The notes beneath the pieces are model-generated. The model did no database searches. It was not told the DNA's origin and saw nothing but the letters and a program-made list of their open reading frames with translations. From a virus: a DNA stretch of 6,318 nt. The position numbers and the translations under genes were made by a program. Shown here one piece after another: positions 1-6,318 of the stretch (positions are counted from its first letter, which is position 1; each line of letters starts with the position of its first letter). The DNA lies in the IMG/VR virus record IMGVR_UViG_3300045988_000562, positions 1-6,318 of that record. One strand, written 5' to 3'.

Positions 1-55
1 CGAATGACGGAGGCTCTTTTCATCAGTTTAAAACTTCGTCAGAATCTGTAAATAC
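1..55. repeat. Terminal redundancy: 1..55 is identical to 6264..6318, so this is a circular genome with a 6,263-nt unit length, opened inside the capsid gene
   Basis: Exact 55/55 nt identity read directly from the two window ends. The VP1 reading frame is continuous across the junction: 5312 mod 3 = 2, and 6266..6268 corresponds to 3..5. Confidence 0.95.
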
Positions 56-980
56 GGGTTCTGCTTCTTCTAAATCTACTTCTGTCTATCCTCGGTTTCC
101 TGATTCTATATCTATTCGTGGTCAAGCTAATCTTTGGGCTGTTCTTGGAGAATCCCCGGATTTAAATTTAAAATTCTCTGTTCTTGCTCTTCGTCAAGCT
201 GAAGCTCTTCAGAAATGGAAAGAGATTACTCAGTCTGTTGATACCAATTATAGAGATCAGATTAAGGCCCATTTCGGAGTGAATGTTCCCCAGTCCGAGT
301 CTCATATGTCTAAGTATATCGGAGGTGTTGCTCGTAATCTTGATATATCTGAGGTTGTTAATACTTATCTTCCGGGAGACGATTCTTCGGCTTCTGTTTC
401 ATCTTCTCAGGCCTATATATATGGTAAAGGCGTTGGATCTGGCCAAGGTTCTATGACCTTTAGTACTGGTTCAGGTTACTATATTATTATGTGTATATAT
501 CACGCTACTCCTCTTTTGGATTATTCCATTAGTGGTCCAGACGGCCAGCGACTTGTTACTTCTGTTGAGGATCTTCCTATTCCTGAATTTGATAGTATCG
601 GTATGGAATCAGTTCCTGCTGTTGAGCTCATGAATTCAAGTTTGTATTCTAATGTAAACTCTGCGGATAAGATTCTTGGTTATAATCCTCGTTATTATAA
701 TTGGAAAACTAAGATCGATCGCATCCATGGTGCTTTTACTACTACTCTTAAAGATTGGGTTGCTCCTGTTGATGATGCTTTCTTATATTCTTTATTTGGA
801 GGTAATCTTTCAACGTTTAAAGGTGTTACGTGGCCCTTCTTTAAGGTGAATCCGAATACCCTTGATGATATTTTTTCGGTTAAAGTTGATTCTACATGGG
901 AAACTGATCAACTTTTAGTGAATTGTAATGTTGGTTGTTATGTAACTCGCCCATTGTCTGCCGACGGTGTGCCTTATTGA
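1..980 (+). CDS. VP1: Microviridae major capsid protein VP1 (F-like), 3' portion. It continues from 5312..6263 across the circular junction, total about 643 aa. Stop codon TGA at 978..980
   Basis: The frame is open from nt 3 with no upstream stop and is the same frame as the ORF from 5312. The translation reads ...NDGGSFHQFKTSSESVNTGSASSKSTSVYPRFPDSISIRGQANLWAVLGESPDLNLKFSVLALRQAEALQKWKEITQSVDTNYRDQIKAHFGVNVPQSESHMSKYIGGVARNLDISEVVNTY... This is the conserved ALRxAxALQKW / YxDQIxAHFGV / YxGG block of gokushovirus-type capsid proteins. Third-position T codon bias matches the rest of the genome. Confidence 0.93.
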   Translation, partial: NDGGSFHQFKTSSESVNTGSASSKSTSVYPRFPDSISIRGQANLWAVLGESPDLNLKFSVLALRQAEALQKWKEITQSVDTNYRDQIKAHFGVNVPQSESHMSKYIGGVARNLDISEVVNTYLPGDDSSASVSSSQAYIYGKGVGSGQGSMTFSTGSGYYIIMCIYHATPLLDYSISGPDGQRLVTSVEDLPIPEFDSIGMESVPAVELMNSSLYSNVNSADKILGYNPRYYNWKTKIDRIHGAFTTTLKDWVAPVDDAFLYSLFGGNLSTFKGVTWPFFKVNPNTLDDIFSVKVDSTWETDQLLVNCNVGCYVTRPLSADGVPY

Positions 981-987
981 TTAAGTT

Positions 988-1503
988 ATGAAAGAAAAAG
1001 AAGAATATAAAACTAGTGCTTGTTTTGGCCCTGGTTATCGTAGACATGAGTTTATTCGTGAGATTTGTTTGTGTCCTATTTGCGCTTCTTCTGCCCCTGA
1101 TATTGTTCTAGAGGAACTTCCTACTGAACAATTTCGATTTGAGAAAGTGGGAACTAAGGAAAATGAGGCTATTCGTATTCGCTCTGATGTAAGTATGTTA
1201 CTTCATGCTGCTGATATGGCGAAGAAGTATGGTACAGGTTTTGTTCAGTCTATGATTGATATGCGTCGCCCTAGGTCTAGTGCTCTTCAATCTCAAATGG
1301 ATCAGATGTCTGACGCTCAGATTTTAGACACTGTTAAGTCTCGTCATCTTCAATCTCCCTCTGAGTTGATTGCGTGGAGTGAATACCTTATAGAACAAGC
1401 TAAGGATATTGAACAAGAAGCTGAACGTCTTGCTATTGAAAAAGAAGCTTCTGCTGCTGCTTCTTCTGTTGAGTCTCAATCCGATGTAACCAGTACTGAA
1501 TAG
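988..1503 (+). CDS. Hypothetical 171-aa protein. N-terminal Cys4 cluster (C-x14-C-x-C-x2-C) and a very acidic helical C-terminus. Possibly an internal scaffolding (VP3-like) or small zinc-binding protein
   Basis: ORF begins 8 nt after the VP1 stop and ends 2 nt before the VP2 start, giving operon-like packing. Coding-type T3 codon bias. Motif CFGPGYRRHEFIREICLCPIC. C-terminus EQAKDIEQEAERLAIEKEASAAASSVESQSDV is acidic and coiled-coil-like, as in phage scaffolding proteins. No family-specific motif recognised. Confidence 0.6.
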   Translation: MKEKEEYKTSACFGPGYRRHEFIREICLCPICASSAPDIVLEELPTEQFRFEKVGTKENEAIRIRSDVSMLLHAADMAKKYGTGFVQSMIDMRRPRSSALQSQMDQMSDAQILDTVKSRHLQSPSELIAWSEYLIEQAKDIEQEAERLAIEKEASAAASSVESQSDVTSTE

Positions 1504-1505
1504 CT

Positions 1506-2624
1506 ATGGGCCTTCTTGATTTTATTCCTGTTATTGGCGATGTTGCTTCTTTTATTGGTAATACTGTTTCTACAAATAAGACCAATAAGACGAATATGGC
1601 TATCAATCAGATGAACAATGAGTTTAACGCTGCCGAAGCTGAAAAGGCTCGGCAGTTTCAATTGGATATGTGGAATCGTACCAATGAATATAATTCTGCC
1701 TCTGCTCAGCGTTCTCGTCTGGAAGCAGCTGGATTGAATCCCTATTTAATGATGAATGGAGGTTCTGCTGGTACCGCCCAGTCCGCTGGATCTTCTTCTC
1801 CTGCATCTGCTGCTCCTCCTTTGTCTATGCAACGCCAGGATTTTTCTGGTATTAGTAATTCCTTATCTAGTGCTCTTCAGATTGCTAACCAGACTAAGGA
1901 GACTAATGCGGTTGTACAAAATCTCCAAGGCCAGAAGAGTTTGGCTGATGCTCAAGTTAATAGTATTCTTTCTAATGTTGATTGGTATAAGTTGAATCCT
2001 ACTTATAAAAAATGGCTACAGGCTACTGGTTCTTTACGTGCTAATATTCAGTTAAATACTGATAAGCAAAATCTTGATAATATGCGTTGGTCTGGATCTC
2101 TTATTCGAGCACAGCGCGCTGGTCAATTACTAGATAATCGAGCACAGTCTGTTTTAAATAAATATCTTGATCAAGGCCAACAATTACAATTGAATATTGC
2201 TGCTGCCCAGTACGAAGATCTAGTAGCTTCTGGTTATTTAAAATATCAACAGGCTAAGTCTGAATTATCCCGGCGTCTTCTTATGAATGCTCAGGCTAAA
2301 GGTCAAAGGATTTCTAATAATGTTGCTGAAGAGACTGCGGATTCTCTTATAAAAGCATATAATGCTGAGAATCAGGCTTCCTTGGATATTAATAGTCCTT
2401 ATATGACTAAAGAAGGTCGTAAAGATGCTGCTTCTGTTTTGCAAGCTCGTATGAGTTCTCTTAATGAGGAATGGAATTATTCTAAACGTTATTGGAATGA
2501 AGGACTTAATGCTATCAACACTATTGGTAATGCTGTTGGTAATGTAGGTAATGTCCGTCGGCGTCCTGCTCCTCAGACTTTTGTTTATGGTAATCGTACT
2601 TACAATAATTATCGTACTCCATAG
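1506..2624 (+). CDS. VP2: Microviridae VP2 minor capsid / DNA pilot protein (H-like), 372 aa
   Basis: Hydrophobic N-terminus MGLLDFIPVIGDVASFIG followed by the conserved VP2 signature ...ARQFQLDMWNRTNEYNSASAQRSRLEAAGLNPYLMM... (FQxxMWNxxNxYNSxxAQxxRLxxAGLNPYLM). There is a long Q/N/A-rich helical central region, as in the pilot protein. Gene position is immediately downstream of the capsid module. Confidence 0.88.
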   Translation: MGLLDFIPVIGDVASFIGNTVSTNKTNKTNMAINQMNNEFNAAEAEKARQFQLDMWNRTNEYNSASAQRSRLEAAGLNPYLMMNGGSAGTAQSAGSSSPASAAPPLSMQRQDFSGISNSLSSALQIANQTKETNAVVQNLQGQKSLADAQVNSILSNVDWYKLNPTYKKWLQATGSLRANIQLNTDKQNLDNMRWSGSLIRAQRAGQLLDNRAQSVLNKYLDQGQQLQLNIAAAQYEDLVASGYLKYQQAKSELSRRLLMNAQAKGQRISNNVAEETADSLIKAYNAENQASLDINSPYMTKEGRKDAASVLQARMSSLNEEWNYSKRYWNEGLNAINTIGNAVGNVGNVRRRPAPQTFVYGNRTYNNYRTP

Positions 2625-2666
2625 TCGGCGCTTGGCCTCCGTGGCCTGAACGGACCTCAGGTAATT

Positions 2667-2682
2667 GGACGTGGTAACGTCC
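2667..2682. repeat. Perfect 6-bp stem with a 4-nt loop: GGACGT-GGTA-ACGTCC
   Basis: Bases 2667..2672 are the reverse complement of 2677..2682. Read directly from the sequence. Confidence 0.7.
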
Positions 2683-2691
2683 CTTAACGTC
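2675..2691 (+). repeat. Tandem direct 7-mers TAACGTC (2675..2681 and 2685..2691), spaced 10 nt start to start. They look like iterons
   Basis: Read directly. The first copy overlaps the 3' arm of the 2667..2682 hairpin. The pair lies 7 nt upstream of the CTTGATAT octamer. Confidence 0.45.
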
Positions 2692-2697
2692 TAGTAC

Positions 2698-2705
2698 CTT
2701 GATAT
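2698..2705 (+). promoter_or_regulatory. CTTGATAT octamer identical to the core of the phiX174 gene A nick site (CAACTTG^ATATTAATAAC). Candidate Rep (VP4) cleavage site
   Basis: Sequence context is tagtaCCTTGATATCggcgg. There is an 8/8 match to the phiX174 ori core. It lies inside the only non-coding island, flanked by GC hairpins. An 8-mer has roughly 0.2 probability of occurring by chance in a genome of this size, so this is a hypothesis rather than a call. Confidence 0.3.
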
Positions 2706-2715
2706 CGGCGGAGCC

Positions 2716-2741
2716 GCACACCACGCGCGTAGCGTGGGTGC
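2716..2741. repeat. Imperfect 10-bp hairpin: GCAC(A)CCACGC-GCGTA-GCGTGG GTGC
   Basis: 2721..2726 pairs with 2732..2737, and 2716..2719 pairs with 2738..2741 with a one-base bulge. The stem is all G:C rich. Confidence 0.55.
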
Positions 2742-2867
2742 AGTTCCGTCCTTATCTACTCCCATTAGGAAGCCGGCCTCTCTCTCTCAACTGTCTTTCA
2801 TCCCCTATATACCCCTAAAAAAATTTGGCCGCATAGTTAAGTATCTCTGTACTGGCGAAAGCCTTCA

Positions 2868-2943
2868 TCATTTATCCCGTAAGGGTTTTCGGTTAATCTC
2901 CGCCGAAAACTCCCTCCCCTCTTGCCTTATATAGGATAAATGA
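2868..2943. repeat. Perfect 10-nt inverted repeat: TCATTTATCC (2868..2877) and GGATAAATGA (2934..2943). It encloses an internal 8-bp hairpin and a C-rich tract
   Basis: Read directly. The arms are exact reverse complements with 56 nt between them. The enclosed segment contains the ccc-GTAA-ggg GNRA-type mini-hairpin and the 2885..2910 hairpin. The GGC-GAAA-GCC mini-hairpin lies just upstream at 2853..2862. The single-stranded run TCCCTCCCCTCTTGCC follows the inner hairpin. Confidence 0.6.
2885..2910. repeat. Perfect 8-bp stem with a 10-nt loop: GTTTTCGG-TTAATCTCCG-CCGAAAAC
   Basis: 2885..2892 is the reverse complement of 2903..2910. No T-run follows, so it is not a canonical intrinsic terminator. 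Confidence 0.7.
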
Positions 2944-3040
2944 CAGTGTTCCCCCCTCAAAAAAACGATTTTTTTTTGTATTTTAAAAATATATTCTTTT
3001 CTTTGTGTCGTTGTTATAACCATTAAACACTTTTTTTGTT
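2941..3040 (+). promoter_or_regulatory. AT-rich, promoter-like leader upstream of the small-ORF/rep operon. Includes a C6 run and an A7-CGA-T9 homopolymer palindrome (2951..2977)
   Basis: There is an abrupt switch from GC-rich to AT-rich sequence: ...TTCCCCCCTCAAAAAAACGATTTTTTTTTGTATTTTAAAAATATATTCTTTTCTTTGTG... Several TTTG-containing segments resemble Bacteroidetes -7/-33 elements, but I could not find an exact TAnnTTTG match. The first + strand gene starts at 3041. Confidence 0.3.
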
Positions 3041-3253
3041 ATGAGTAAATATATTTCATCTGTTGTGATTATTCTTTCTCCTAAACGAGAGTATTCGTCT
3101 GAGCCTCTTGTATCTAAGGTTCTCGGATTGGATTATGTTTCAGGTGCTACAATTCCTCATGCTACTCATTTTGTTTATAAGAGTCCTCTGATTAAGCCTT
3201 ATCTCTCTAAATATGATATTGTTAGTCTTACATTTAAATATTTTGATTTATGA
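3041..3253 (+). CDS. Hypothetical 70-aa protein, first ORF of the accessory cassette
   Basis: Codon usage matches the phage genes (tct/gtt/att/cct third-position T). The stop overlaps the next start as ATGA (3250..3253). No recognisable motif. Confidence 0.5.
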   Translation: MSKYISSVVIILSPKREYSSEPLVSKVLGLDYVSGATIPHATHFVYKSPLIKPYLSKYDIVSLTFKYFDL

Positions 3254-3447
3254 AAATTACATCTCAGCAATGGATTGAAATCATCAAATTGATTTCTACT
3301 TTTATCATTGGTATTATTACTACTCTTGCTGTACAATCTTGTACTGCGTCTATGTCTATTTCTAAATACAATAGCAATAGTTCTCAGGCAACTGAACAAA
3401 CTTCTACTTCCTCTGTGGATTCGACTAAAATAAATATTGATTATTAA
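3250..3447 (+). CDS. Hypothetical 65-aa lipoprotein-like or single-pass membrane protein
   Basis: Translation is MKITSQQWIEIIKLISTFIIGIITTLAVQSC-TASMSISKYNSNSSQATEQTSTSSVDSTKINIDY. It has an N-terminal hydrophobic helix ending in a lipobox-like LAVQSC, then a Ser/Thr-rich tail. The ATGA start/stop overlap with the upstream ORF indicates translational coupling. Phage-like codon bias. Confidence 0.55.
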   Translation: MKITSQQWIEIIKLISTFIIGIITTLAVQSCTASMSISKYNSNSSQATEQTSTSSVDSTKINIDY

Positions 3448-3465
3448 TTTTTTACAATTACAATT

Positions 3466-3663
3466 ATGAAAGAGAATAATTCTTTATTGGTATCTGTTAA
3501 GTCTAAAAAATCTCAGCCTCAAAGTCAAGGCCGAGTGTATGTTGTTTCAAAGGAAGATATTTCTTCTTTTGTGAAAAAAGTTCTTGATGATGATACTATT
3601 TTGTTGATTGATTCTGTCGAAACTTTTGTTTCTGAACCTCTTTCTATTGACGAGATGTTATGA
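3466..3663 (+). CDS. Hypothetical 65-aa protein with a basic N-terminus and an acidic C-terminus
   Basis: Translation is MKENNSLLVSVKSKKSQPQSQGRVYVVSKEDISSFVKKVLDDDTILLIDSVETFVSEPLSIDEML. The stop TGA (3661..3663) overlaps the rep start ATG (3660..3662) as ATGA, so it is translationally coupled to VP4. Phage-like codon bias. Confidence 0.55.
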   Translation: MKENNSLLVSVKSKKSQPQSQGRVYVVSKEDISSFVKKVLDDDTILLIDSVETFVSEPLSIDEML

Positions 3664-5300
3664 TAAATCAAGAGGTCATAGATAAGTATCTTCTCTCTGA
3701 GTGTCTTCATCCTTGCAAGGTGTTTAATAAGTACACAAATGAAGTTGTATATGCCCCTTGTGGACATTGCTATTCGTGTCTTAAAAATAAGTCGAATCGT
3801 GATACTGCATTAGCTATGAATATTGCTTCAAATTTTAAGTATTGTTATTTTGTTTGGCTTTCTTATGAAGATTCCTATCTTCCTTATATGGAGCTTAAAA
3901 CTATTGATCATTTGGGTGATACTCGTTTTAATTACTCTTTTTCATCTATCAATAGAAATCTGCGTATTTCTGTTCCTAATGGTAAAGATAGGATTATAGA
4001 AGACTCTCCATTTGAGATTACTCATTCTATGACTTCTTCTGAATATCAAGATATTATTGTTAAGAGTCATGGACGTTATGACTTTCTTCGTAAATGCGTT
4101 GTATACCCCCGTTTTGAAGATTGTGATAATCGTATTCCTTATTGTAATACTTCTGATTGTCAGAAGTTTTTAAAGCGTTTAAGATTTCATTCAAAAGATA
4201 AATATAATGAAGAAATACGTTTTTACGGTGTATCAGAATATGGTCCTCGGACATATCGTCCGCATTGGCATTTGCTATTATTCTTTAACTCGGACAAACT
4301 CGCCTCGTCTATACAGCAACTTGTATTTGAGAGTTGGTCCTACGGTCGTACAACTTGTGAATTATCGAGAGGAAGCGCTGCTTCCTACGTTGCGTCGTAT
4401 GTTAATAGTAATGTATGCTTACCTTCACTATACGTCCAGCACAAAGAGATTAGGGCGCGTTCCTTCCACTCTAAAGGATATGCAAACAATCATGTCTTTC
4501 CCACTCAAGCCTCGATACATGAGCTTGATAAAATGTCCTCTATCCTCCTTGATGGAGAAAGCATCTCTATTAATGGTGAAACTAAGCGAATCTACCCTTC
4601 ACGGGCGTATAAATGTACCGCATTCCCCAGATTCTCGAATCTTGTTTGCAAATCTCCATATAGCAGTGCTTACTTATTTTCAGCTGCGTTCTTTGCACCC
4701 GAGAGGCTCATTCGTTTCGGATATTTGGACATAACTTATGACAAGTCTATTTCTCCTGTATCTGAACTTGCTTATGCTTATACTGATTTTTTTTTAGATC
4801 GTGAAGATAAAGGGTTTGTTCATTCTGATGATGAACTTATCGTTGCTGCTGTTCGTCTTGATGCTCCTAATCGTAAGTATTGGCATTGTCTTACTTATGA
4901 TCAAATTCGTAGTAAATTTTACAGGCTTTTTAATACAGTTATTCGTTCTGCTCGGTTTTGGAATTTATTTGGATGTGTAGATGTTTATCGTCGAGGTCCT
5001 ATTTACGCCCTTATGGAAGCATCTGATAATTATTGGAATGAATTTGCTCGTCGTCAGCTTCATGATTATTATGAATTTCTTGAAAGTTGTAGTGAAGAGC
5101 AGCGTTCTTTTTTATTTTCTCGGTCTGTTTATAATGAAATAAAGAACTCTACTAAAGAGATTAAAAAAGAATATTCTTATGATTACGAACTGAGTGACAA
5201 ATTCCTTAAAGAGTTAATCGCTATTAATCGGAAGGCGTGCGTGGATAAGATTAAACATAAGGAATTTAATGATCTTAGTGGTTTATTGTTAAATACTTAA
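3660..5300 (+). CDS. VP4: Microviridae replication initiation protein VP4 (gene A-like HUH rolling-circle endonuclease), 546 aa
   Basis: N-terminal Cys/His cluster CLHPCKVF...YAPCGHCYSCLKN, typical of gokushovirus Rep. HUH motif RPHWHLLLFF (HWH codons at 4263..4271). Catalytic tyrosine motif SYVASYVNSN (Tyr codons at 4386..4388 and 4398..4400). It is followed by a roughly 300-aa C-terminal region. Confidence 0.9.
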   Translation: MINQEVIDKYLLSECLHPCKVFNKYTNEVVYAPCGHCYSCLKNKSNRDTALAMNIASNFKYCYFVWLSYEDSYLPYMELKTIDHLGDTRFNYSFSSINRNLRISVPNGKDRIIEDSPFEITHSMTSSEYQDIIVKSHGRYDFLRKCVVYPRFEDCDNRIPYCNTSDCQKFLKRLRFHSKDKYNEEIRFYGVSEYGPRTYRPHWHLLLFFNSDKLASSIQQLVFESWSYGRTTCELSRGSAASYVASYVNSNVCLPSLYVQHKEIRARSFHSKGYANNHVFPTQASIHELDKMSSILLDGESISINGETKRIYPSRAYKCTAFPRFSNLVCKSPYSSAYLFSAAFFAPERLIRFGYLDITYDKSISPVSELAYAYTDFFLDREDKGFVHSDDELIVAAVRLDAPNRKYWHCLTYDQIRSKFYRLFNTVIRSARFWNLFGCVDVYRRGPIYALMEASDNYWNEFARRQLHDYYEFLESCSEEQRSFLFSRSVYNEIKNSTKEIKKEYSYDYELSDKFLKELIAINRKACVDKIKHKEFNDLSGLLLNT

Positions 5301-5311
5301 TTTTTTTTATT

Positions 5312-6318
5312 ATGTCTCATTTTACTGGTCTTAAGGAGTTGCAGAATAGGCCTCACAAATCAGGTCATGATATCTCCGCTAAGAATTGTTTTACGGCTAA
5401 GGTTGGAGAGTTGCTCCCCGTGTGGACTGATTTTGCAATTCCGAATTCTACTTACAGATTCAATCTTGAGTATTTTACTCGTACTCGCCCAGTGCAGACT
5501 TCTGCGTATACTCGCATTCGTGAGTATTTTGATTTTTTTGCGGTTCCTTGTGACCTTATTTGGAAATCATTTGATTCTGCTGTGATTCAAATGGGTGAAA
5601 AAGCTCCTCTTCAATCTAAGGATTTGTTGTCTAATCTTGCTGTTAAAGGAGATTTACCTCATTGTACCCTTAATGATTTGAGCATTTCTTTGTATTCTGC
5701 AGCTGGAAATCCTCATCAATTAGGTGATGATGTTTCTGTTGTATCTGGATATGGTAATATTTTTGGTTACAATCGTGGAGATGTAAATCATAAATTACTC
5801 TCCATGTTGGATTATGGTAACGTTGTTGCCAAGACTGATTCTAAAATTGGTACTGGTACCAATCGTTGGTGGAATATGCAATCAGCATTAACAGATTCTT
5901 CTAAATATTCTCAGAAGTACAATGTGAATTTGACTGTCGAATTGATGACTCTTGCTAGTTATCAAAAGATTTACCAGGATTTTTTTCGTTGGTCTCAATG
6001 GGAAAATGCCGATCCGACTTCGTATAATTTTGATTGGTATACCGGTTCTGGAAATATTTTTTCTACTGGTATTTCTTCTGTGATTCCTCCTAATAATAGT
6101 TATTGGAAGCGAGATAATTTATTCTCTCTTCGCTATGCTAATTGGAATAAAGATAAATTTATGGGTATTCTCCCGAATTCCCAATTTGGTGATCTTGCAG
6201 TAGTTGATCTTGGTACAATTGCTACTACTGGATCTAAGATTCCGGTAGGTGCTTATGATCTTTCGAATGACGGAGGCTCTTTTCATCAGTTTAAAACTTC
6301 GTCAGAATCTGTAAATAC
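5312..6318 (+). CDS. VP1: Microviridae major capsid protein VP1, 5' portion. It runs off the window end and continues at 1..980
   Basis: ATG at 5312 lies 11 nt after the VP4 stop. Translation is MSHFTGLKELQNRPHKSGHDISAKNCFTAKVGELLPVWTDFAIPNSTYRFNLEYFTRTRPVQTSAYTRIREYFDFFAVPCDLIW......NWNKDKFMGILPNSQFGDLAVVDLG... This is the classic VP1 N-terminus with the L-P-Q-FGD block. I found no in-frame stop through 6318 by manual codon reading. The ORF track omits it because it has no stop inside the window. Confidence 0.93.
   Translation, partial: MSHFTGLKELQNRPHKSGHDISAKNCFTAKVGELLPVWTDFAIPNSTYRFNLEYFTRTRPVQTSAYTRIREYFDFFAVPCDLIWKSFDSAVIQMGEKAPLQSKDLLSNLAVKGDLPHCTLNDLSISLYSAAGNPHQLGDDVSVVSGYGNIFGYNRGDVNHKLLSMLDYGNVVAKTDSKIGTGTNRWWNMQSALTDSSKYSQKYNVNLTVELMTLASYQKIYQDFFRWSQWENADPTSYNFDWYTGSGNIFSTGISSVIPPNNSYWKRDNLFSLRYANWNKDKFMGILPNSQFGDLAVVDLGTIATTGSKIPVGAYDLSNDGGSFHQFKTSSESVN
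6264..6318. repeat. Second copy of the 55-nt terminal redundancy (identical to 1..55)
   Basis: Exact identity. See feature 1..55. Confidence 0.95.

Follow-up and report, generated by a model that had tools for sequence, protein, structure and literature searches.

We use comparative alignments, covariance modelling and folding calculations to study the single large intergenic region of a 6,318-nt stretch of viral DNA (IMG/VR record IMGVR_UViG_3300045988_000562, positions 1 to 6,318; hereafter the window). The window spans a circular microvirus genome, 6,263 nt long, whose ends overlap by 55 nt (1..55 = 6264..6318). Its only gap of more than 20 nt between genes, an island at 2625..3040 that runs from the stop codon of the pilot protein gene (VP2) to the first of three small open reading frames (ORFs), is probably the cis-acting replication-origin region of the phage. 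A first-pass annotation, made from the letters of the window, had named the island the best candidate for the replication origin, and that proposal is now strongly supported, mainly by evidence that the annotation did not contain: the island holds a module whose structure is selected on one particular strand, which bears a phiX174-type origin signature, which occurs once per genome, and whose orientation is coupled to the strand skew of the genome that carries it. To the covariation, the phiX174 match, the single copy and the skew coupling, the origin reading adds the HUH-type replication proteins (Reps) of these phages, the presence of stable DNA mini-hairpins, and the lack of a match to Rfam families or to transfer RNAs (tRNAs).

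The mechanism that we infer joins both steps of replication in one place. The HUH Rep (VP4) would nick the + strand in a single-stranded stretch between the second and third hairpins of the module (H2 and H3), and this nicking would both start and end the rolling-circle synthesis of the packaged strand. The extra-stable mini-hairpins of the island (GCGGAGC and GCGAAAGC) would form in the packaged strand and stay free of single-stranded DNA-binding protein (SSB) after injection, and would then recruit the host priming machinery for synthesis of the complementary strand.

A strand-specific fold conserved among microviruses

The island stands out by composition, with a G+C content of 0.54 at 2601..2800 and 0.495 at 2701..2900, compared with 0.28-0.46 (about 37%) elsewhere, and the description of it as the one large, GC-rich intergenic region holds. 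It contains no conserved ORF, and since relatives differ there by frame-breaking indels of 1 nt and of 21-24 nt, we take it to be non-coding. A search of 2625-3040 with the covariance models of Rfam 15 (E <= 10) gave no match, and ARAGORN found no tRNA or transfer-messenger RNA in the island. The fold of 2600..2960 is better than that of all 100 dinucleotide-shuffled controls, both as DNA (z = -3.99), which was the check that the first-pass annotation had proposed, and as RNA (z = -4.82). The structure is unevenly spread: of the hairpin density claimed for the whole island, the part at 2634..2742 (z = -2.7) and the part at 2851..2947 (z = -4.81) stand, but the 108 nt between them (2743..2850) are unstructured (z = 0.05).

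The whole island is kept in the close relatives MT837631 and Dulem viruses 244 and 245. Its first structured part, a core module of 109 nt (2634..2742, + strand), extends much further, and is found at 78-90% identity over some 110 nt in microviruses whose capsid and Rep proteins have no BLAST-detectable similarity to those of the window. Pattern scans of viral and metagenome contigs with two independent motifs yielded about 109 contigs with the module, all of microvirus size except for a few chimeras and concatemers; seven hits of the second pattern in large contigs were set aside as chance matches. The module lies on the gene strand in about 48 of these contigs (here called sense genomes) and on the opposite strand in about 61 (antisense genomes). 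We derived a covariance model, R1, from 55 non-redundant copies; each genome has a single hit to it, scoring 79-143 bits (133 bits in the window), where chance loci reach no more than 15.5 bits. The scan of 185,579 bacterial and archaeal genomes returned only two matches, as many as chance alone predicts; both fall within coding sequence, resemble the module in nothing beyond the pattern and score no more than 15.5 bits. A search of plasmids for relatives of the module gave no match. The module is thus restricted to microviruses. Three longer contigs (L084, L099 and L116) had raised the idea of prophage junctions, which we dropped: each is a complete circular genome with terminal repeats fused to foreign DNA (2-7 kb of unrelated sequence at 60-65% G+C), probably a chimera. 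Of two other irregular contigs, L091 is two different genomes joined and L098 is a concatemer.

Quantitative inspection of the 55 copies reveals strong covariation in the stems. In the alignment, which was also folded with RNAalifold, 95.7% of all pair cells are paired; shuffling the columns lowers this to 81.7%, and sliding the partners lowers it to 30-41%. Cells in which both bases have changed number 214 where 64 are expected, and compensatory changes occur at 14 of the 27 pairs, the kind of conservation that the annotation had named as a check. The mismatches have a direction. G·T cells exceed A·C cells by 44 to 8 in sense genomes and by 45 to 14 in antisense genomes, and because the excess is large in both lineages, it is the strand shown here, and not its complement, whose fold is under selection.

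The first hairpin of the module, H1 (2635..2662), consists of an outer helix (2635-2638/2659-2662, 85.5% paired) and an inner helix (2639-2642/2650-2653, 95.5% paired) with a 3' bulge, and its pair 2639/2653 is CG in 31 sequences, GC in 16 and UA in 3; this covariation replaces a smaller hairpin previously drawn at 2634..2646, pairing 2635-2642 with 2650-2653 and 2659-2662 instead. The three other hairpins that had been noted in this part (2667..2682, 2706..2716 and 2716..2741) all gain compensatory changes among the 55 copies. H2 (2667..2682, GGACGT/ACGTCC) is 95.2% paired with compensatory changes at five of six pairs. H3 (2706..2716, CGGC-GGA-GCCG) is 100% paired and contains the mini-hairpin GCGGAGC (2708-2714), for which GCGAAGC stands in most relatives; its pair 2708/2714 is GC in 36 sequences, CG in 11 and AU in 7. 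H4 (2719..2740), with a bulged A2723 and an ACCAC block in its 5' arm, is 98.8% paired with four compensated pairs, and its pair 2725/2735 is GC in 35 sequences and G·T in 20. Between H2 and H3 runs an unpaired, near-invariant linker, TAG(C/T)ACC-T--TATCG (2692..2707), in which variation among relatives is confined to positions 2699, 2701 and 2702.

The second structured block (2851..2947, + strand) is confined to the subclade of the window. It begins with the mini-hairpin GGC-GAAA-GCC (GGCGAAAGCC, 2854..2863), followed by a long-range stem (2868-2875/2936-2943) that encloses a second mini-hairpin, CCC-GTAA-GGG (2876..2885), and a further hairpin (2886-2892/2903-2909). All 546 of its pair cells are paired (slid controls give 31-57%), every stem substitution is either compensated or a wobble, and four pairs are compensated where 0.3 are expected. 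The hairpin at 2885..2910 and the 10-nt inverted repeat 2868..2877/2934..2943 of the earlier description are confirmed inside this subclade, and both mini-hairpins it listed are present and conserved; among relatives GGCGAAAGCC alternates with GGCGAAGCC, so that GAAA and GAA loops interchange. Two other pairings were rejected, an inverted repeat 2790-2809/2928-2947 that is not conserved in relatives, and a long-range helix, spotted by eye, between GCACCTT of the core and a downstream AAGGTAGC, for which a whole subclade lacks the partner.

The pyrimidine-rich linker between the two blocks has features of its own. Two unpaired boxes with no pairing partner are kept in both lineages, CCTTATC (2750-2756) and, at 2802-2815, CCCCTATATACCCC in the lineage of the window and CCCGTTATACACC in the other. 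An insertion of about 24 nt, TTTGGCCGCATAGTTAAGTATCTC (2824..2847), is present in the window and in part in L073; close relatives do not have it. In a smaller group inside the subclade (L029, L030, L078, L087 and L115) an additional insertion of about 200 nt, GC-rich and hairpin-rich (GCGGTGCGAGCTGGAAGCTCG...CCGCGCGTAGCGCGC), lies between the core module and the GGCGAAAGCC block.

A phiX174-type signature and stable mini-hairpins

Where the module is unpaired and most conserved, it carries a signature of the phiX174 plus-strand origin, CTTGATAT-N14-ACCAC (2698..2724, + strand), with the spacer CGGCGGAGCCGCAC. The phiX174 record annotates the viral-strand origin at 4306 (CAACTTG^ATATTAATAACACTATAGACCAC), where CAACTTG^ATAT runs on through the spacer TAATAACACTATAG to ACCAC; a hairpin with a GAA loop comes next. 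The functional parts of that origin we take to be the key sequence CTTG^ATA, an AT-rich spacer, and a 3' block ending in GACCAC at a fixed distance from the nick. In the window, positions 2698-2705 read CTTGATAT, just as phiX174 does at 4302-4309, and ACCAC (2720-2724) lies 14 nt past it exactly as in phiX174 and is invariant in all 55 copies. The signature occurs once in the window, which has no other phiX-like site, and none of 200 shuffles matches it even with one mismatch allowed. About a quarter of the relatives (25%) carry CATAGTAT, CTTAGTAT or CTTAATAT in place of CTTGATAT. By homology with phiX174 the Rep would cut between G2701 and A2702, a placement that we regard as uncertain.

The likeness to the 30-nt origin of phiX174 and the other Bullavirinae, where the gene A protein nicks, thus covers CTTGATAT, the 14-nt spacing, the ACCAC block followed by a hairpin, and the location of the motif on the T-rich strand. 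It also extends to the enzyme, as these phages encode their own HUH Rep. That of the window has the PF23343 HUH domain and a weak match to the phiX GPA family PF05840, and PF23343 Reps are encoded by both of the lineages that bear the module; a motif in the window Rep, YVASYVNS, resembles the two-tyrosine motif of gpA. Unlike phiX174, the window signature is flanked by two further conserved hairpins, and the bases around the nick vary among relatives. In relatives without the module, a relaxed form of the origin motif was hit 12 times, each time on the non-coding strand and in about four sequence families; as the best of them is not homologous to the module, we give them little weight.

Now we consider the start of the complementary strand. 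The mini-hairpin GGC-GAAA-GCC at 2854..2863 is the classical d(GCGAAAGC) DNA mini-hairpin. According to a 2026 review (PMC13037366), d(GCGAAAGC) and d(GCGNAGC) both form DNA hairpins of exceptional stability; GCGAAAGC is found at the primase start site of phage G4, resists SSB and melts at 89 C, the G4 sequence CGGCGAAAGCCG binds SSB poorly, and GCGGAGC, GCGAAGC and related hairpins act in single-stranded DNA initiation signals such as ssiA of RSF1010 and in the single-stranded promoters of N4 (PMC13037366). The complementary-strand origins of G4, St-1 and alpha3 are primase-recognised hairpins with GCGAAAGC or GCGTTAGC mini-hairpins, and the island shares with them an intergenic cluster of stable hairpins on the strand that is, here presumably, packaged. 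Within GGCGAAAGCC of the window, GCGAAAGC is part of a match to 10 of the 12 nt of G4 CGGCGAAAGCCG. Beyond the mini-hairpin there is no sequence similarity to G4, and the arrangement differs, with a conserved CTG (2852-2854) placed 5' of the mini-hairpin in a phage whose host is probably a member of the Bacteroidota. A role as complementary-strand origin is plausible given the G4-type mini-hairpins, a fold on the presumed packaged strand, and a module that is shared despite almost unrelated Reps, which points to recognition by host factors.

A similar layout is known from the Ff phages (M13, f1 and fd), where one large non-coding region joins the plus-strand nick site to the complementary-strand hairpins, all read from the packaged strand. 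The Ff phages belong to another virus realm with another Rep family and show no sequence similarity to the island, and a packaging hairpin is also part of their region, while microviruses fill their capsids as rolling-circle synthesis proceeds. Hairpins have also been reported in other microviruses: Olo Ndela et al. 2022 (PMC9865509) described intergenic hairpins with compensatory substitutions in the reekeekee- and roodoodoo-microviruses and tentatively tied them to the initiation of the negative strand. Those viruses are uncultured, and like the window they have intergenic DNA hairpins backed by compensatory substitutions, but theirs number one or two, are simple, stay within single clades and lack the plus-origin signature, whereas the window module has four hairpins over 109 nt and is exchanged, in both orientations, across lineages unrelated in their proteins. 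Apart from these tentative hairpin predictions in two small clades, the literature that we searched describes neither a plus-origin signature nor such a module for these microviruses.

Orientation, strand skew and competing explanations

The window groups with the sense genomes in a single clade, which has two subclades, S1 and S2. The antisense genomes come from a large lineage of gut microviruses whose members have a Rep of 269 aa together with a capsid protein of the F type, for which BLAST gives no alignment to the proteins of the window. Of the complete relatives in this lineage fetched by capsid protein alone, 21 of 21 bear the module in antisense, at identities reaching down to about 50%. 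At third codon positions, the gene strands of the two groups are mirror images, with A.18, C.12, G.17 and T.53 in sense genomes and A.48, C.20, G.13 and T.18 in antisense genomes. The strand that bears the module is therefore always T-rich and C-poor at these positions, whichever strand holds the genes. In single-stranded DNA phages a T-rich, C-poor skew has been attributed to deamination of cytosine in the single strand (PMC3278643).

Elements of S2 reach 90.8% identity to those of the antisense lineage and no more than 73.5% to those of S1, and the module of ON840045 (sense) is 89% identical to that of OP549868 (antisense). Since S2 elements are closer to the antisense lineage than to S1, we conclude that the module has moved between lineages.

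The antisense module, together with the mirrored folding signal and skew, raises the question of which strand these viruses package. The module may set the displaced, packaged strand, in which case the antisense lineage would package its non-coding strand, making it a group of negative-sense Microviridae, and the cassette would have been exchanged between polarities; we offer this reading tentatively, and hold it somewhat short of an even call. A comparable switch exists in eukaryotic viruses with circular, Rep-encoding single-stranded DNA (CRESS-DNA) genomes, where the origin of circoviruses and that of cycloviruses, a nonanucleotide within a stem-loop, differ in strand with respect to the genes, which alters the strand that is packaged. 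For Microviridae, the literature that we searched describes no differences in polarity. Roux et al. 2012 (PMC3394797) reported a single ORF on the complementary strand, called its orientation highly unusual, and knew of no other case in the Microviridae. The cultured Bdellovibrio phage phiMH2K has, at about 3765..3790 (+), on the coding strand inside its Rep gene, a perfect 6-bp stem-loop, CTTGCC-GACTTAATAT-GGCAAG, with a phiX-like ACTTAATAT loop; it is possible that this is an origin, and it would then argue for normal polarity in that phage.

Several observations count against the origin reading and the use that we make of orientation. The evidence is computational throughout. Thermodynamic z-scores are similar on the two strands (-2.69 and -2.56). 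While the phiX174 spacer is AT-rich and unpaired, that of the window is GC-rich and forms H3, and the phiX174 origin lies inside gene A whereas the window site lies between genes, some 950 nt before the start of VP4. Positions 2701 and 2702, which flank the phiX-equivalent nick, are among the few variable positions of the core (GA, AG or AA), and Reps that are 98.8% identical adjoin different core variants, so that the co-variation of Rep and core variant that we looked for was not found; because this variation does not track the Rep, the exact cut site is uncertain: either the Rep accepts several sequences or it cuts at another place. Between the two lineages, modules are 80-90% identical but Reps can barely be aligned (25.8 bits), and similarity to the window Rep is 24.3 bits in module-bearing and 23.0 bits in module-lacking relatives, which leaves no sign of a transfer of Rep specificity along with the module. 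Lastly, coding strands that are A-rich and G-poor at third positions are found across the antisense-lineage loci (L119-L184), more distant relatives with no detectable module among them, and in phiMH2K (L191), opposite to the T-rich third positions of phiX174, Chp2 and SpV4; the mirrored skew is a trait of the whole lineage, and the skew argument thus rests on few independent events. The pattern as a whole fits a cassette with two readers: host factors that the two lineages have in common would recognise its structure, and HUH Reps of this family a short nick motif retained since they diverged from phiX174.

Some of these points favour a narrower explanation, that the island is a complementary-strand origin and nothing more: host primase, PriA or RNA polymerase would be drawn to its hairpins, the likeness to the phiX174 plus origin would be a coincidence, and the Rep would nick at some other place. 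A module shared and exchanged among viruses with almost unrelated Reps fits recognition by the host, the mini-hairpins are of the G4 type, and the bases beside the supposed nick do vary. However, a 13-base, spacing-exact match to phiX174 in the invariant core has a chance expectation of essentially zero, and the window offers no second phiX-like site, which together make this explanation unlikely.

Covariation with G·U-type wobbles and a favourable RNA fold (z = -4.82) would also fit a structured non-coding RNA gene, for example one acting in host defence or translation, co-transcribed with the upstream genes in the lineage of the window and served by its own opposite-strand promoter in the other. 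Such a gene could be found in either orientation relative to its neighbours, and antisense genomes have just upstream of the module a conserved TTTTAAC(T/C)TT that resembles the Bacteroidota -7 box. Yet most copies of this box lack the final G of TAnnTTTG, Rfam gave no match at E <= 10, and an RNA gene would leave unexplained the phiX origin signature, the DNA-type mini-hairpins that swap GAAA for GAA, and the constant match of orientation to genome-wide strand skew; we rate it as rather improbable.

We give little credence to an element of messenger RNA 3' ends, whether a terminator or stabiliser of the long upstream message or an insulator before the downstream promoter. The island does lie directly after the VP2 stop and before a promoter-like region, with an A8/T9 hairpin following at 2958..2978, and a transcription terminator had been suggested for it. 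But we found no site with a stem and a run of T in 2500..3150, and the terminator idea is therefore unsupported; in the antisense lineage, moreover, the module is antisense to all genes, which puts the folded strand outside the message, and 109 nt kept at 80-90% identity across viruses unrelated in their proteins exceeds what a terminator needs. A recombination or attachment site for lysogeny (Xer/dif-like, or an attP matching a structured RNA gene of the host from which the covariation was inherited) is hardly credible at all, for although Bacteroidota are known to harbour microvirus prophages (cited in PMC9865509 and PMC3394797) and either orientation would work, the 185,579 bacterial and archaeal genomes hold no copy beyond two chance hits, the longer contigs are full circular genomes fused, away from the element, to DNA of 60-65% G+C in the manner of chimeras, and the asymmetry of G·T over A·C indicates single-strand folding and not recognition of a duplex.

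Genome context and meaning

All long ORFs of the window are on the + strand. Going by the ORF list with PHROG and Pfam assignments, they comprise the major capsid protein (5312 through the wrap to 980), the scaffold (988..1503) and the pilot protein VP2 (1506..2624) ahead of the island, and three small ORFs (3041..3663) and the 546-aa HUH Rep, VP4 (3660..5300), behind it. Between the second structured block and the small ORFs lies an inverted repeat, an A8-CGA-T9 hairpin (2958-2978, + strand), which is possibly an easily melted region adjoining the origin. Its end overlaps a promoter-like arrangement, TTTG (2975-2978), 19 nt, and TTTCTTTG (2998-3005), in place of which relatives have TATCTTTG or TATATTTG, including a perfect TAnnTTTG. 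The consensus of Bacteroides promoters is TTTG/TAnnTTTG. The stretch 2975-3005 is thus a putative Bacteroidota-type promoter for the downstream genes, and its style suggests a host in the Bacteroidota.

Separately, a 175-codon ORF in the +1 frame (4207..4734, + strand) lies over the part of the Rep gene that encodes the catalytic core. No stop interrupts it in 33 of 33 genomes of the sense lineage, down to 50% amino-acid identity, and T at third positions of the Rep frame drops to 0.36 across it, compared with 0.62-0.63 on either side. It is a candidate overprinted gene, like B and K inside gene A of phiX174.

The microviruses that dominate animal gut viromes have no defined replication origin in the literature that we searched. 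The proposed origin module gives a concrete target for assays of Rep nicking and of priming, for the building of replicons and for the rebooting of synthetic genomes, and its covariance model can be used to orient microvirus genomes from metagenomes. If the reading of orientation as polarity is true, the textbook account of Microviridae as uniformly positive-sense would need revision, and strand-specific models of mutation in these phages would have to include polarity.

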